Notes: a model not told the origin generated them from the sequence alone. A DNA stretch of 64,000 bases from an uncultured Acidobacteriota bacterium (GCA_963777605.1 CAVZRV010000010.1:539849-603848); one strand, 5' to 3'. Positions 29,946 to 57,254 are shown, counted from the stretch's first letter. Numbers and translations are program-made.

Positions 29946-30023
29946 TGGCGTCCCCAGGGGGATTTGAACCCCCGTCGCCGCCGTGAAAGGGCGGTGTCCT
30001 AGGCCAGGCTAGACGATGGGGAC
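29946..30023 (-). tRNA. tRNA-Glu (anticodon TTC)
   Basis: Reverse complement reads GTCCCCATCGTCTAGCCTGGCCTAGGACACCGCCCTTTCACGGCGGCGACGGGGGTTCAAATCCCCCTGGGGACGCCA: cloverleaf, TTC anticodon, CCA end. Confidence 0.96.
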
Positions 30024-30130
30024 GCTCTCGATGAAGGCGGCATTCTAGCAATTTTGTCCGACCAAGTCCAGCGCGGGTGGAAAGGGCAAGACTGGATAGA
30101 CAACGAGAAGTCGTTCACAATACGGAATCC

Positions 30131-31105
30131 ATGAAACCGGCAAAGATTCTCTCAATCGGCCCCTTACCGCAGAATGTCATCGAACGCTTCTCAGACCGCT
30201 GGGAGGTAGCCTGGGTTCCGGATTCATCCCGGGAGGAAGTCCTCGAAGCCGTCGGCCCGGACGTCGTCCTGATCATCGCCCGCGGATCGGTAATGCTCGA
30301 TGGCGTCATCATGGACCGGGCTCCTAACCTGAAAGCGATTGCCCGAACCGGGGTCGGCTACGACACGGTTTCCATCGAAGACGCTACCGCCCGCAAATTG
30401 CCGGTTCTCTACACCCCGGGCGCCATGACCAAAGCGGTCGCCGAATTGGCCGTCGGCTTCATGATCGGAGCCTGCAAGCGGCTTACGTTCTGGCGAGAGG
30501 CGCTGGAGAAGGGAGACTGGGATTCGAGATACCGGACGATGAGCCGGGATCTACAGGGAGCGACGCTGGGAATCATCGGCTACGGAAGGATCGGACGCCA
30601 GGTCCGGCGACTGGTTCGGCCGTTCGAAATGACGGTCCTGGCTAACGACCCCTACATCGACCATGACGCTTTGAGCGGTGAGGAGGTAGAGTTCGTCGAT
30701 CTCGAAGAAATCCTCTCCCGATCATCGATTGTTACGCTTCACGTTCCTCTGACCGAAGAGACCCGGGCCCTGATCAACCGGCGCAACATTTATCGCATTC
30801 AACCCCGAAGCATCCTGATCAACACGGCTCGCGGCTCGGTGATCGAAGACCTCGATCTTCTGGTTGACGAACTGGAGAGCGGGCGACTGGATACGGTCGC
30901 ACTCGACGTGTTCCCGGACGAGCCACCCCCGGCCGGTCACCCGATCTTCAAACACTCCCGCGCCCTGCTCACCGGGCACGTGGCGGCGCGGACTCCGCTG
31001 GCCCAGAAGGGAATCCTGGAAACCATGATTCACGACTCCCTCGCAGTCCTGGAGGGGAGAAAGCCCCGGCTCAAGAATGTCGTAAATCCGGAGGTATTCT
31101 GCTAA
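30131..31105 (+). CDS. D-isomer-specific 2-hydroxyacid dehydrogenase (SerA-like)
   Basis: RTGVGYD, GIIGYGRIG, LHVPLT, INTARG and LDVFPDEP. Confidence 0.92.
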   Translation: MKPAKILSIGPLPQNVIERFSDRWEVAWVPDSSREEVLEAVGPDVVLIIARGSVMLDGVIMDRAPNLKAIARTGVGYDTVSIEDATARKLPVLYTPGAMTKAVAELAVGFMIGACKRLTFWREALEKGDWDSRYRTMSRDLQGATLGIIGYGRIGRQVRRLVRPFEMTVLANDPYIDHDALSGEEVEFVDLEEILSRSSIVTLHVPLTEETRALINRRNIYRIQPRSILINTARGSVIEDLDLLVDELESGRLDTVALDVFPDEPPPAGHPIFKHSRALLTGHVAARTPLAQKGILETMIHDSLAVLEGRKPRLKNVVNPEVFC

Positions 31106-31137
31106 CTGGCAGGATTGTCTGCGGTTCTTCCTGGCCT

Positions 31138-31462
31138 GAAACTTCATTTGGGATGAGTTCCTGGTTCCTGGTTTCTCGTTCCTGGAGGGAGAGTAATCCA
31201 GGCAGCCGTGCCCTGGTATGGCGGCCGGGCAGCTTGCCCGGCGGAATTGAACATTCTCAATCCAGGATTCTTGATTTCCGGTTTGTTCTGAAACAGTCCG
31301 CCATCGGGGCTGAATCGCACTTTCAGTGCTGCATTGCCCTCTCGGCTCCCATTCCCCGGGCGTTGCCGACAGGCTGAAAATGACCCTGCGCCGTTGGCGT
31401 GCTCATCTGGCGATGCTCCACCAGTTTCACTCTTTGAATGGTCTCCGCGGCGCGGAGAGGGC
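31138..31462 (+). repeat. ~325-bp hairpin-rich dispersed element, copy 1
   Basis: Near-identical (about 20 differences by eye) to the reverse complement of 56545-56868. Confidence 0.92.
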
Positions 31463-31553
31463 AGGACTTGAAACTCCCGCCGTTGAGGACGAAACTGGTA
31501 TTGCACAGCAACCTGAAACCGACACTGGAGTGAATCCGACGGGGGACCTGACG

Positions 31554-32393
31554 ATGCCTGCGTTGAATGTTGAGAAAGTACTCTGTCCTGTTGATTTGAG
31601 TGAGATTTCCGGAGCGGTTCTGTCCTGGGCGGGCATGGTGTCGTGGTCCTTCAGAGCCAATCTGACCGTTTTTCACGCCGACTGGTTTGAACTGCCGCCC
31701 TACTTTACCCATTCGCAGATCGAGGAATTGAGCCGGCAGTCCGAGGCCGAGCGGCAGTTTCTGGTTGAATCCCTGCGTGCTCTGGTGAAGGAGAGAATCA
31801 GCCCGGAAGTGATGACATCGGTTGAGGTTGGCAAGGGACATGCCATCGAGTTGATCGACGAGATCCTGGTCCGGGACCAGCCCGACCTGGTGGTGCTGGG
31901 AAGCGAGGGCCGGACCGGAATTTCGCGCCTGATGATGGGCTCGGTGGCGGAAAACGTGGTCAGGTCGGCCCACTGCCCGGTTCTGGTTGTCCGTTCCATG
32001 AGTGTGCCCTCATCAGTGGAACGGGTCCTCGTCCCGGTTGACTTTGATGACCGGTCCAGGGAACTCGTGGAGATCGCCGCCGAGATTGCGGGGCGGTTCG
32101 GTGCCGAAATGATCGCTCTCCACGCTTCGGAGCAGGCGTCTTCGGAGTCAGAAGACCAGCTCTGCTCCTTTATTCCGGCTGCGAGCCGGGATCATTGCCG
32201 GGTGCGGGAACTGGTGCGGCAAGGGGATTTCGCAGAGCAGATCGTCCTTGCGGCGCGGGAGGAAGAAGTGGATCTCGTGATCGTTCCGGTTCGGCGGCAG
32301 ACCTTTCTCGAGTTCACAACGATGGGTGGGGAGACGGAACGGGTGATCCGCCACTGCAGCCGGTCGGTACTCACCGTCCCATTTCACGGGTAG
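31554..32393 (+). CDS. Universal stress protein (tandem USP domains)
   Basis: KVLCPVDLS, DLVVLGSEGRTG..GSVAENVVRSAHCPVLVV, and a second domain RVLVPVDFD. Confidence 0.92.
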   Translation: MPALNVEKVLCPVDLSEISGAVLSWAGMVSWSFRANLTVFHADWFELPPYFTHSQIEELSRQSEAERQFLVESLRALVKERISPEVMTSVEVGKGHAIELIDEILVRDQPDLVVLGSEGRTGISRLMMGSVAENVVRSAHCPVLVVRSMSVPSSVERVLVPVDFDDRSRELVEIAAEIAGRFGAEMIALHASEQASSESEDQLCSFIPAASRDHCRVRELVRQGDFAEQIVLAAREEEVDLVIVPVRRQTFLEFTTMGGETERVIRHCSRSVLTVPFHG

Positions 32394-54042: not shown

Positions 54043-56445
54043 ATGGAAAAAGCCAGTTGCCGTCATCGTCGTCTCGAGCCGTCGGAATTACGCGCCGTTT
54101 GTGATCCCGCCGAACTGAAATTCTCCACCACCGCCGATCTCGCTCCGCTTGATGGAATCATTGGGCAGGAACGCGCTTTGAGGTCGGTTCAGTTCGGGCT
54201 GGCCATGCGGAGCTTCGGCTACAACCTGTACGTGGCGGGGAGCCCCGGGACTGGCAAGAAGACGTTGACCCGGCTTCTGGTCGAGGAGATTGCCCGAAAA
54301 GAGCCCACCCCAAACGATATTTTCTACATTTACAATTTCGAACGGCCGGAACGGCCGAAGGCGATTGAGGTGCCTCCAGGGGTAGCCTCTCGGTTCCGCG
54401 CCGACATGGCCCGACTGGTTTCCAATCTCCAGGATGAGATCCCCAAGGTGTTCAAAAGCGAAGACTTCGAGACCCGGAAGAACGAAATCGTCCAGTCCTT
54501 CCAGGAGCACAGGGGAAAGCTGATCGAACACCTCCAGGAGCAGGCCCGGGCCCATAATCTCACCGTGAAGTCGGCTGGTGCCCAGATTCTCAGCCTCCCC
54601 GTCCGCGATGGACGGGAACTGACGCCTGAGGAGTACGAACAGCTGTCGGATGCCGAGAAGGAAGAAATCCAGAAGAACCAGAGGGACCTCGGCGAAGAGA
54701 TTCAGGAGGTCTACAAGCAGATCCGACAGCTGCAGATTGAGATCCAGGAACGGTTGGGCGAACTGGAGCGAACCGTTGCCTTGATCGCCTCGGGTTACTA
54801 CCTGGACGAACTGCGCTCCCGGTACTCCGAGTATGGAAAGATTTGCACCTACCTGGACGCCGTCCAGCGGGACATCGTGGACAAGATTTCAGACTTCCTG
54901 CCGACCGAAGAGGAATCAGACGACTCCGATCCGTCGGGAGACAAGCCAGCCGACCCATTCAAGCGCTACCACGTCAACGTGATCGTCGACAACTCCAAGC
55001 AGGAGGGGGCTCCCGTGATCGAGGAGACCCACGCGATCTTCCGAAATCTGATCGGGTATTCGGAGAAAGAAGTGCGGATGGGGACGCTCTACACCGACTT
55101 TACTATGCTCAGGGCCGGGTCGATCCTGCAGGCGAATCACGGATACCTCATTCTCGACATGGTGGACCTGCTCGCCACCCCGCTGGCCTGGGATTCGCTC
55201 AAACGGGTCCTGCAGGACGGGGAGGTGATCATCCAGGAGCCGGCGGAGCAGCACGGCCTGGTGGCGTCCCTGGGGCTACGTCCCGAACCGGTCCCCGTCG
55301 ATCTAAAGGTGATCGTTCTGGGGAGTTCGGACATTTACAACGCGCTTTACCGGGTTGACGAAAGCTTTCAGAAACTGTTCAAGATCCGTGCCGAGTTCGA
55401 CACTGTGATGCGAAAGGACGATGGCCACCTCGACAAGTACGCCCGCTTTGTCCGGACCCTTTGCGAGAAGGAAGACCTGAGGCACTTTGATCGGGACGCG
55501 GTCGCGGTTCTCGTCGAGTACGGTTCGCGGATGGTATCCGATAAGACCCGGTTGACCCTGCGCTTCAGCGATGTGGCTGACCTGATCCGGGAGTCGGCCC
55601 ATTGGGCTGGTGTGGCCAAGAAGGACTATGTTGGAGCCGAAGAGGTCCGAAAAGCCATCGCCGAAAGGATCTTTCGGTCAAATCTCTACGAAGAGCGGAT
55701 CCAGGAGATGATCGACGAAGGTTCGATTCTGATTCAGTGCGCCGGGGAGGTGGTCGGTCAGATCAACGGGCTCTCGGTTTACCAGGTAGGGGACTACTCA
55801 TTCGGAAAGCCGACCCGGATCACGGCCGAGGTAGGAGTCGGCACCGAAGGGATCATCAACATTGAGCGGGAGGCCCACATGAGTGGGAGCATCCACGACA
55901 AGGGCGTCCTCATCCTGAGCGGGTACCTCAATGGAAAGTACGGGTCCACCCATCCCCTGAGCCTCAACGCGAGCATCTGCTTCGAACAGTCCTATTCCGG
56001 CGTTGACGGAGACAGTGCCAGTTCCACCGAGTTGTACGCGATTCTGTCCGCTCTCGCGGAGGTTCCCCTGAAGCAGAACCTGGCCGTCACCGGGTCGATC
56101 AATCAGAAAGGGGTAATCCAGCCAATTGGTGGGGTCAACGAGAAGATTGAGGGATTCTTTGCTTCCTGCAGGGCGTCCGGCCTGACCGGGGACCAGGGCG
56201 TTGTCATTCCGCATCAGAACGTGCAGAGCCTGATGCTGTCCCAGGAAGTGATCGACGCCGTCGGTGGGGGCAAATTCCACATATTCGCTATCGAGGATCT
56301 GGACGCGGGGATTGAGCTCCTGACCGGAATGACCGCTGGCGAGCGCCAACCGGACGGAACCTACTCCGAGGGCAGCATTCACGCCCTGGTCCAACGCCGA
56401 CTCGAGGGAATGGCCGAAATAGTCCGCCACCACCGGGGAGCGTAA
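54043..56445 (+). CDS. Lon-like ATP-dependent protease (AAA_32 plus Lon_C)
   Basis: IGQERA, GSPGTGK, ANHGYL, FEQSYSGVDGDSAS (Ser) and GGVNEKIEGF (Lys). Confidence 0.92.
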   Translation: MEKASCRHRRLEPSELRAVCDPAELKFSTTADLAPLDGIIGQERALRSVQFGLAMRSFGYNLYVAGSPGTGKKTLTRLLVEEIARKEPTPNDIFYIYNFERPERPKAIEVPPGVASRFRADMARLVSNLQDEIPKVFKSEDFETRKNEIVQSFQEHRGKLIEHLQEQARAHNLTVKSAGAQILSLPVRDGRELTPEEYEQLSDAEKEEIQKNQRDLGEEIQEVYKQIRQLQIEIQERLGELERTVALIASGYYLDELRSRYSEYGKICTYLDAVQRDIVDKISDFLPTEEESDDSDPSGDKPADPFKRYHVNVIVDNSKQEGAPVIEETHAIFRNLIGYSEKEVRMGTLYTDFTMLRAGSILQANHGYLILDMVDLLATPLAWDSLKRVLQDGEVIIQEPAEQHGLVASLGLRPEPVPVDLKVIVLGSSDIYNALYRVDESFQKLFKIRAEFDTVMRKDDGHLDKYARFVRTLCEKEDLRHFDRDAVAVLVEYGSRMVSDKTRLTLRFSDVADLIRESAHWAGVAKKDYVGAEEVRKAIAERIFRSNLYEERIQEMIDEGSILIQCAGEVVGQINGLSVYQVGDYSFGKPTRITAEVGVGTEGIINIEREAHMSGSIHDKGVLILSGYLNGKYGSTHPLSLNASICFEQSYSGVDGDSASSTELYAILSALAEVPLKQNLAVTGSINQKGVIQPIGGVNEKIEGFFASCRASGLTGDQGVVIPHQNVQSLMLSQEVIDAVGGGKFHIFAIEDLDAGIELLTGMTAGERQPDGTYSEGSIHALVQRRLEGMAEIVRHHRGA

Positions 56446-56544
56446 TTCCGCAACCGGAGACAGAATTCAGGAGACAGGAGCCGTGCCTCCGAGTGTCTGG
56501 GGAAGGTCGCTGATCCAGGAGAATGACTTGTCCAGGTGAGCGGG

Positions 56545-56868
56545 GCCCCTCCGCGCTGCGGAGATCATCCGCAAAGTGAAACCGGTGGAGCATCGCCAGA
56601 TGAGCGCGCCAACGGCGCAGGGTCATTTTCAGCCCGGCGGCAACGCCCCGGAAATGGGAGCCGAGACGGCAATGCAGCACTGAAAGTGCGATTCAGTCCC
56701 GGTGGCGGACTGTTTCAGAACAAACCGGAAATCAAGAATCCTGGATGGAGAATGTTCACTTCCGCCGGGCATGCTGCCCGGCCGCCATACCAGGGCACGG
56801 CTGCCTGGATTACTCTCCCTCCAGGAACGAGAAACCAGGAACCAGGAACTCATCCCAAATGAAGTTTC
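56545..56868 (-). repeat. ~325-bp hairpin-rich dispersed element, copy 2 (inverted)
   Basis: Reverse complement of 31138-31462. Confidence 0.92.
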
Positions 56869-56952
56869 TAGTTCAGCCCCGCCCCGGGGATCTTTGCAGC
56901 TTCGCGCTGGAAAACGCGCCCGTCGTTGAAGGTCCAGGCCACCCCGTCAGGG

Positions 56953-57120
56953 TCAGTGAACTTGGTCCGGGGGCTCACCGTCGTCCGAGTTTTGAAGCTG
57001 CCGCGTGAAATGCTTGTAGAGGACCCAGGCGACAAAGAAGGAGACCCCAAAAATCACCGCCGGGATGATGTACCCGAGGACAGGACTCCCGATTCTCGGT
57101 AGTTGCTGCAGCAGTGTCAT
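56953..57120 (-). CDS. Small single-TM membrane protein (55 aa)
   Basis: Strong RBS GGAGGAG; MTLLQQLPRIGSPVLGYIIPAVIFGVSFFVAWVLYKHF. Confidence 0.65.
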   Translation of the reverse strand: MTLLQQLPRIGSPVLGYIIPAVIFGVSFFVAWVLYKHFTRQLQNSDDGEPPDQVH

Positions 57121-57254
57121 CGGATTACTTCTCCTCCCTTCCTGACCGCTTTTTCCTCTTGTTGTAGTAAACCCAGGCACAAATTAGACCGGCCAGGGAG
57201 AACAGGTACGAGACACTCATTCCAATTACAACGGCCAAACCCTGATCCATCGCG

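Follow-up and report, generated by a model that had tools for sequence, protein, structure and literature searches.

The present study concerns a repeat of about 330 bp that occurs twice, in inverted orientation, in a 64,000-nt stretch of DNA (the window) from an uncultured Acidobacteriota bacterium; the window corresponds to G000:C10:539849-603848 of a 6.73-Mb, 53-contig assembly. Both copies belong to a family, here named C330, and are probably gene-less miniature derivatives of an IS110-family insertion sequence (IS) of the same genome, moved in trans by its recombinase. The copy number, the shared ends, the homology to a bridge RNA, the covariation of guides with ends, the flank pattern and the arrays were observed. 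From these we infer mobilization in trans, the formation of circles and the assignment of a bridge RNA to each copy. The C330 repeats are probably selfish DNA of an already described kind, and a new RNA gene is unlikely.

Previously, a sequence-only reading of the window described a non-coding element in two inverted copies with strand-specific conservation of structure. The inverted repeat is real: a repeat search returned one inverted pair in the window (31138-31460 versus 56546-56868, with arms of 323 nt that are 94% complementary), and pairwise alignment of both arms showed an abrupt onset and end of similarity. Neither the two-copy status nor, as shown below, the strand-specific conservation of structure held up. 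A 401-nt query around copy 1 gave 64 matches in the genome search and 104 blastn high-scoring segment pairs, 32 of which were at least 250 nt long. Compared with the consensus, 30 copies on 14 contigs cover at least 80% of its length, with a mean identity of 91.6%, and a further 15 copies are partial. These 30 near-full copies are dispersed and have identical, precise boundaries. Most of them start at CT-GACYTGAAACTTCA, and their end is one conserved G-rich block, followed by CT-GACYTG. The element of about 333 nt contains no gene.

When up to 2 mismatches are tolerated, the 16-mer CT-GACYTGAAACTTCA occurs 137 times in the genome, and adjacent occurrences often lie a regular distance of about 152, 330, 415, or 1652 nt apart. 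The 51 stretches between adjacent motifs fall into five families, namely A415, B152, C330, D415, and a 1652-bp unit; the non-coding families are at least four, of about 152, 330, 415, and 415 nt. Copies of at least 80% length number 41 for A415, 15 for B152, 7 for D415 (97.3% identity) and 4 for the 1652-bp unit (99.8% identity). The consensi of the four non-coding families and of the 1652-bp unit, as delimited here, agree over their initial 16 nt and their final ~42 nt. Solitary units retain both ends at precise boundaries. About 236 left-end blocks were counted in the genome, versus 19 in a reversed-sequence control, and arrays of 10 to 14 units that include two tandem copies of the 1652-bp unit lie on contigs C8 and C24.

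The 1652-bp unit is the parent IS. It encodes a ~458-aa protein with the Pfam domains DEDD_Tnp_IS110 (1.1e-20) and Transposase_20 (5.6e-10), and the only solved relative of this protein, the IS621 transposase (PDB 8wt6), matches it distantly (E 2.4e-5). Apart from these four matches, the genome has no IS110-type gene. The recombinase gene runs into the right end (RE) of the IS, which its stop codon overlaps, and a 275-nt non-coding left end (LE) lies ahead of the start codon. The LE piece has a G/C-rich start, a hairpin and the word TGAAACT, whose inverted partner AGTTTCA lies near the RE, forming a 7-bp subterminal inverted repeat. The IS is located in two tandem pairs within unit arrays, on C8 (332129-335433) and on C24. 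The latter contig (13.8 kb) is collinear with C8:328060-340592, with ~92-93% identity in the unique flanks and 99.5% in the IS; the order of units is identical, and C24 is richer in D415 and A415 units. C24 is best read as a second haplotype of the C8 array locus, and therefore the genome proper may hold only two IS copies. The difference between the two arrays suggests recent turnover of units or exchange of the IS between co-assembled strains; faulty assembly may account for part of the gap in unit number, given a 161-nt poly-T in C8. The latter is a perfect 161-T run (L031:3293-3453, equal to C8:331792-331952) inside one A415 array unit, beside a 62-nt fragment of the bridge RNA, and probably arose through faulty assembly or scaffolding of a repeat that had collapsed.

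C330 shares about 14 nt on one side and 43 nt on the other with the IS. In local alignments of the IS left end with the consensi of C330, A415, and B152, LE positions 0-43 align and nothing further does, whereas positions 0-225, including both guide loops, align with D415. Related ISs in other genomes (51-64% protein identity) open with a left end of the same kind, i.e., a G/C-rich start, a hairpin and CATTC..GAAAC. These relatives were met in a Bryobacterales metagenome-assembled genome (MAG; 57-58% protein identity), a Planctomycetota MAG (51%) and four genomes of the window's order (G043, G029, G065, and G056; 52-64%). The 43-nt module lies in unrelated flanks in 6/6 Bryobacterales and 6/6 Planctomycetota copies aligned, and also in G043, G029, and G065. 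Because the same architecture opens related ISs in unrelated flanks, the 43-nt left-end module is best regarded as part of the IS and not as a host repeat. The recombinase clade was found in 16 of 76 genomes of the order, including G000 and the unpublished G018, and in 0 of 15 other genomes of the family.

Nine left-end stretches of ~138 nt (ours, two D415 variants, G056, G043, G029, G065, Bryobacterales and Planctomycetota) were aligned, giving 29 predicted pairs, 9 of them with compensatory changes. According to Durrant et al. (2024, PMC11208160), the bridge RNA of IS110-group elements such as IS621 has two loops, whose 5′ sides correspond to the left target plus core and to the left donor plus core. 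The same rule for the left target guide and the left donor guide was met here. With guide words picked out by eye in the printed sequences, the 5′ side of loop 1 equals the left-junction DNA in each of the seven ISs, and loop 2 bears on its 5′ side the word found at the right end of the same IS, as follows.

Our IS: loop 1 5′ side, AAGTCAGCC; loop 2 5′ side, AAGTCAG.
Bryobacterales: loop 1 5′ side, AAGCCAGTC; loop 2 5′ side, ACACCAGC.
Planctomycetota: loop 1 5′ side, GAGCCAGTC; loop 2 5′ side, CAGGTCAG.
G056: loop 1 5′ side, GGATTAGT; loop 2 5′ side, AGGTCAG.
G043: loop 1 5′ side, ATCTCAGCC; loop 2 5′ side, AGCTTAG.
G029: loop 1 5′ side, AGGTTAGC; loop 2 5′ side, CAGCTTAG.
G065: loop 1 5′ side, CAGGTTAG; loop 2 5′ side, CAGGTTAG.

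The AG common to the words before their point of divergence fits a 2-nt core (CT on the opposite strand). An anchored logo of the target left half is circular by construction and was not used as evidence.

The donor guide varies together with the ends of its own family. The guide AAGTCAG of the IS corresponds to the IS right ends CTGACTTG (T-type) in 4/4 cases, and the guide AGGTCAG of D415 to the D415 right ends CTGACCTG (C-type) in 7/7. Among the 17 C330 copies with a recognizable start, the right ends are C-type in 11 and T-type in 6. A covariance model (R1; 138 positions, 29 pairs) was built from the nine left ends and searched against the window and 32 loci, which comprised both arrays, 28 copies of C330 and many of A415 and B152. 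It gave 16 matches at E ≤1 over the 33 sources, all of them in the IS, in D415, or in one 62-nt fragment, and zero matches in the window and the 28 C330 copies. Over the whole genome, 12 matches were obtained, all in arrays on C8, C24, C21, and C51. Because both the covariance model and the left-end alignment match D415, this family is best described as a transposase-less unit that retains a putative bridge RNA. That C330 could itself be a bridge RNA is ruled out by the left-end alignment, which stops at position 43, and by the covariance model.

The loop-1 guide of our IS reads AAGTCAG(CC); hence, the left target and left donor words are the same in our IS, and likewise in G065. The target guide matches the element's own right end plus core, and therefore units would be laid down in head-to-tail arrays. 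Right ends abutted by the LE of another unit are T-type, the type identical to the target guide, in 32/66 cases versus 24/83 for the rest (Fisher p 0.017, with array copies non-independent), an excess that weakly supports self-targeting. The word CT[GAC]A[CTA] stands right after the LE in 23/30 C330 copies versus 8.7% of random 18-nt windows, and CTGAC in 15/30 versus 1.4%. Fourteen of the 30 copies abut the right end of another element, and 11 of the remaining 16 have a CTNAN word. In two other genomes of the order, related ISs are also flanked by RE-like and LE-like sequences of more units (L128 in G065 C3 and L127 in G029 C29); the clade of this IS may be prone to self-stacking arrays in general.

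We propose that C330 keeps only what recombination would need in cis, namely the last ~14 nt of the RE and the first 43 nt of the LE. Its interior would be ~270 nt of unrelated, hairpin-rich cargo, with no bridge RNA of its own. Recombinase and bridge RNA would be supplied in trans, the latter by the IS or by D415 units, which carry a bridge-RNA copy and no transposase; the two ends would then be joined into a circle, and the circle would be inserted next to RGTC-AG. As the target guide matches the unit's own right end, new copies would land behind resident ones, producing the head-to-tail arrays.

Several observations weigh against this proposal. The right target and right donor (3′) guides, sought by eye as reverse complements of the core plus right flank, were not found. 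The flank statistics partly reflect membership of arrays, whose copies are non-independent. No empty site was found when the flanks of 93 copies were searched in the assembly, including the second-haplotype contigs; all 71 paired flank matches were repeat-to-repeat inside arrays. The C330 copies are old (84-94% identity) in comparison with the IS copies, which are 99.8% alike, and therefore activity of C330 with the present IS is an extrapolation. With C24 as the second haplotype, the number of IS copies per genome may be two instead of four. Besides, a lean of the plus strand toward wobble-compatible changes (46:25, see below) is unexplained, base composition aside. On the supporting side, one soil-metagenome contig has C330 position 31443 joined to 31135 head to tail, for which an array or a circle origin are both possible. 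Four soil and salt-marsh DNA runs contain short related contigs, one of which spans the left junction (31028-31178); none of the contigs of these runs, which are short pieces, skips the element. In two metagenome pattern scans, a 27-nt C330-specific word had 0 matches and a 23-nt left-end motif had 2, both at contig ends.

A further proposal, which we regard as possible but tentative, is that of a three-tier RNA-guided mobilome depending on one recombinase locus: the tandem IS pair would provide the enzyme, the transposase-less D415 units would form a second tier that still encodes a bridge RNA, and more than 200 cargo-only mini elements like C330 would form the third. Here, the donor loop of D415 would have drifted (AGGTCAG for AAGTCAG) to match the commoner C-type right ends. 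The target loop, reading the element's own right end, would make the locus a platform on which small non-coding cassettes are stacked and reshuffled.

The boundaries of copy 1 in the window were set from an alignment of 30-32 genomic copies. Its features are as follows.

31133-31465, minus strand (the transposase-sense strand of the parent IS): C330 copy 1, 333 nt, with the LE at 31465 and the RE at 31133.
31131-31132, minus strand: core dinucleotide at the RE junction, CT (AG in the orientation of the IS); the junction here reads CT-GGCCTGAAACTTCA.
31133-31146, minus strand: RE terminus, present in every unit family and in the IS; plus-strand consensus GACYTGAAACTTCA, with one mismatch here.
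31138-31144: RE-side arm of the 7-bp subterminal inverted repeat, TGAAACT.
31157-31185, unstranded: run of GTTCCTG-type heptads, whose number differs between copies.
31193-31244, unstranded: double-hairpin module of about 50 nt, CCAGGCA..TGCC(C)TGG and GGCCGGGCA..TGCCCGGC, which also occurs alone and in other mini-element families.
31422-31465, minus strand: LE terminus, 44 nt, with homology to the opening 43 nt of the IS left end.
31423-31429: second arm of the subterminal inverted repeat, AGTTTCA, within the LE terminus.
31442-31458, unstranded: LE hairpin, TCTCCGC-ggc-GCGGAGA, whose sequence differs between copies while pairing is preserved.
31466-31475, unstranded: RE-like flank of the LE, ACTTGAAACT, a presumed left-target sequence; the CT core is not intact.

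The LE terminus is the only long stretch that copy 1 has in common with the IS (local alignment, LE positions 0-43). The LE block matches at 31424-31440 with 0 mismatches, and the RE motif at 31465-31478 with 2. The features of copy 2 are as follows.

56541-56874, plus strand: C330 copy 2, 334 nt, with the LE at 56541 and the RE at 56874.
56541-56584, plus strand: LE terminus, with hairpin CTCCGC-gct-GCGGAG and 3 mismatches in the LE block; the core AG (56539-56540) and the flank CCAGGTG stand ahead of it.
56860-56874, plus strand: RE terminus, with two mismatches to the consensus, followed by the core AG at 56875-56876.
56877-56890: LE-like, G-rich relic behind the RE.

The insertion junctions of the window copies are degenerate: the core is absent at 31466, and copy 2, with cores present on both sides, has 2 mismatches in its RE. 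Because the two copies are 6% apart and their junctions are damaged, both are probably decayed, immobile relics. Just upstream of the copy 2 RE on the minus strand, the stretch 56877-56930 ends in CCCCGGGGCGGGG before the CT core and is loosely LE-module-like, perhaps the remnant of an older unit that had been a landing site. Copy 1 is intergenic, between a D-2-hydroxyacid dehydrogenase gene (30077-31105, plus strand) and a universal-stress-protein (Usp) gene (31554-32393, plus strand). Just upstream of the dehydrogenase gene lies a tRNA gene (29949-30023, minus strand; Rfam RF00005, 58.3 bits). Copy 2 is likewise intergenic, with convergent neighbors: a LonB-like protease gene (54043-56445, plus strand) on one side and, on the other, a 75-codon open reading frame (ORF; 56953-57180, minus strand) that comes after a sodium:solute symporter gene.

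The number of heptad units per copy ranges from 1 to about 6 (alignment columns 38-80). The double-hairpin module has 63 genome matches (blastn-short), of which 33 do not fall in a full-length copy of any of the four families, e.g., at C30:18257 and C29:480601 of G000; it is also seen in ~130-nt mini elements bearing the same RE and LE. Additional, uncatalogued unit families may exist beyond the four. In 40 related genomes, which represent other genera within the family and order, the full C330 element was absent and only the heptads and the 50-nt double hairpin were found, with short matches to GTTCCTG-type heptad runs in several (G010, G006, and G036) and 5 matches to the double hairpin in G014. 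The dehydrogenase gene is matched in these genomes at 65-73%, and the Usp gene does not adjoin it.

For the nature of the repeats, the sequence-only reading had offered an undescribed structured RNA or a non-autonomous element that depends in trans on an enzyme of the HUH/Y1 or the RNA-guided kind. The RNA-guided form agrees with our finding, as both C330 ends are the ends of an IS110-family IS in the same genome; the HUH/Y1 form is unsupported, and the structured RNA finds no support from covariation in the body of the element. It was also right that neither terminal inverted repeats nor a transposase are present inside or adjoining either copy.

The alternative that survives best, though we consider it unlikely, is that the ~270-nt body of C330 is a functional structured RNA riding on IS110 ends and read from the plus strand of copy 1. 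It is compatible with a mobile element and would add a function of the cargo. The ssr9 module in MITEPpu9 of ISPpu9 offers a precedent in the accessible text of PMC12288879. All hairpins named by the sequence-only reading were located, the tandem heptads do stand ahead of them, and two of the differences between the window copies fall in hairpin loops (gcT/gcA in CCGGGCA..TGCCCGG and Ggc/Agc in the last hairpin). The consensus folds as a chain of hairpins. RNAalifold on 28 copies gave -73.8 kcal/mol and no compensatory pair for the copy-1 plus strand, and -58.7 kcal/mol with 7 compensatory pairs, including 3/4 pairs of the left-end hairpin, for the opposite strand. In the plus-strand structure of the body, 98% of cells pair, but this structure was chosen by RNAalifold on the same alignment, and 0/70 pairs changed on both sides. 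The covariation score was 0.070 versus a shuffle mean of 0.072, and 421/500 shuffles scored as high. The strand-specific conservation of structure claimed earlier is therefore not borne out by the further copies. The last hairpin, at the left end, does covary: 3/4 of its pairs changed on both sides (CG16/UA7, GC12/CG11, GC23/CG2) in 21 cells, 0/500 shuffles scored as high, and slid controls were far lower. This hairpin belongs to the transposon end common to all families, and many different, still palindromic hairpins are present among the 236 left-end blocks.

The strand on which the structure was first seen (plus in the window for copy 1) is antisense to the transposase. With a structure predicted from the consensus only, stem transitions keep pairing in 46:25 cases on the plus strand versus 33:42 on the other, and variants present in at least 2 copies do so in 18:10 and 7:19, respectively. 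In the RNAalifold structure, the high-frequency variants are all wobble-compatible on the plus strand (e.g., CG15/UG12, GU16/AU12, UA14/UG13). If the count of variants found in 2 or more copies is restricted to Watson-Crick pairs of the consensus, the ratio in favor of pairing is only 14:10. The plus strand is G+T-rich (T 83, A 50), and therefore more G-U pairs are possible by composition alone. Furthermore, the minimum free energy is alike on both strands (-136.9 and -136.6 kcal/mol), and the overall transition spectrum is symmetric. The preference of the plus strand for wobble is thus a weak lean, not a demonstration. There is also no orientation bias to flanking genes: according to a crude ORF caller, the upstream gene is co-oriented in 17/30 copies, and the sites are convergent in 12, divergent in 6 and co-directional in 5 and 7. 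No Rfam family covers the element at the gathering score, the only such match in the window being the tRNA; array locus L031 gave two chance-level matches (E 0.39 and 0.69). The lack of a full copy in the 40 related genomes likewise argues against an RNA function.

It is quite improbable that the common ends are a host landing pad, like repetitive extragenic palindromic (REP) sequences, merely targeted by the IS110 element, and that the units are host repeats amplified otherwise. IS110-family elements do land in REP sequences (ISPpu9, in the accessible text of PMC12288879), and a match to the bridge-RNA target guide is present at the unit boundaries. As described above, however, distant relatives of the IS contain the 43-nt module within the element while their flanks are unrelated, and D415 bears a 225-nt homologue of the IS left end with both guide loops. 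The donor guide, too, matches and covaries with the unit ends (7/7 and 4/4), and solitary units keep both ends at precise boundaries.

Still less probable is that C330 is an element like REPs or bacterial interspersed mosaic elements, or derived from IS200/IS605, moved as single-stranded DNA by a Y1 (HUH) transposase. C330 is hairpin-rich, the genome has 9 Y1_Tnp matches, and one Y1 gene (C7:1122670-1123122) lies inside a repeat unit 78-82% like the A415 interior. Yet no C330 sequence was found within 1.5 kb of any of 8 Y1 loci, where A415 alone was matched, at one locus; moreover, the C330 ends are IS110-type ends, and the RE has no hairpin. At that locus (L129:2850-4650; C7:1121850-1123650 of G000), a 150-aa Y1 gene (IS200/RAYT-like) stands within one of several ~400-475-nt repeats. 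An IS110-type mini element, A415 and not C330, seems here to carry a Y1-type mini element as cargo.

A frame of 108-120 codons on the transposase-sense strand (31144-31506, minus; 56536-56862, plus), with at least 98 codons open in 21/30 copies, about two thirds, has a negligible chance of being a small-protein gene, because substitutions across the 30 copies show no codon periodicity (299/286/253 by position) and indels of 1 and 2 nt are the commonest (13/25); a common start codon is lacking and no Pfam family was matched, and the spanning ORF was ruled out on these grounds. An integron-cassette reading, prompted by the arrays, was dropped since the array recombinase is IS110-type; no search aimed at an integron integrase was made.

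A close parallel to C330 is MITEPpu9 (the ssr9 module) of ISPpu9, an IS110-family element of Pseudomonas putida KT2440, which has 8 copies (Pares-Guillen et al. 2025, PMC12288879); circles of ISPpu9 have been shown experimentally. Both C330 and MITEPpu9 are gene-less, flanked by sequences resembling the left and right ends of IS110-family elements, and free of terminal inverted repeats and target duplication. Both occur beside the transposase gene as well as alone in the chromosome, and use of the transposase in trans has been proposed. In contrast to the 8 copies of MITEPpu9, the genome studied here combines 2 to 4 transposase copies with over 200 left ends and with four or more unit families. 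Unlike ISPpu9, which targets REP sequences, the IS described here has a target guide that matches its own right end, and head-to-tail arrays are seen. Another difference from MITEPpu9 is that one family, D415, bears a copy of the bridge RNA. The likeness is one of organization.

Our IS resembles IS621 and the IS110 group (Durrant et al. 2024, PMC11208160) in its DEDD_Tnp_IS110 plus Transposase_20 recombinase, in a long non-coding left end with almost no right end, in the two-loop RNA and in a 2-nt core at both junctions. It differs in that its recombinase matches that of IS621 only distantly and in a subterminal inverted repeat of 7 bp, where 2-3 bp are stated for the IS110 group. Furthermore, the left halves of target and donor are one sequence here, unlike in IS621, and the window element has neither recombinase nor bridge RNA.

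A recent preprint (bioRxiv 10.64898/2026.08.14.744561) has reported tandem non-coding units and tandem whole-IS duplications beside IS110 transposases, with n = 468 and n = 437 given in a figure legend. Our arrays of non-coding units and tandem IS copies beside an IS110 transposase are of the same kind. A feature of the present case, compared with that report, is that the target guide matches the element's own right end together with the core. Dispersed solitary units and units with only a bridge RNA are present here, and no mention of them was met in the accessible part of the preprint. Among the papers listed by searches of the full-text literature, none was on bridge-RNA-only units or self-targeting arrays.

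For annotation, our finding accounts for repeats that fill about 0.5% of the genome (~32 kb summed from full copies), and it cautions against calling such hairpin chains RNA genes. For the field of IS110 elements and bridge recombinases, C330 would provide a natural example of trans-mobilizable donors cut to about 14 + 43 nt. The same locus holds a bridge RNA in which one word is the left half of both target and donor, so that arrays stack on themselves. It also holds bridge-RNA copies that are separated from the recombinase gene and have a donor guide covarying with their own family's ends. If the three-tier proposal is true, a bridge-RNA-only satellite that re-aims a shared recombinase would amount to natural trans-programming. 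These features of the locus bear on the minimum cis sequence of a bridge-recombinase donor.

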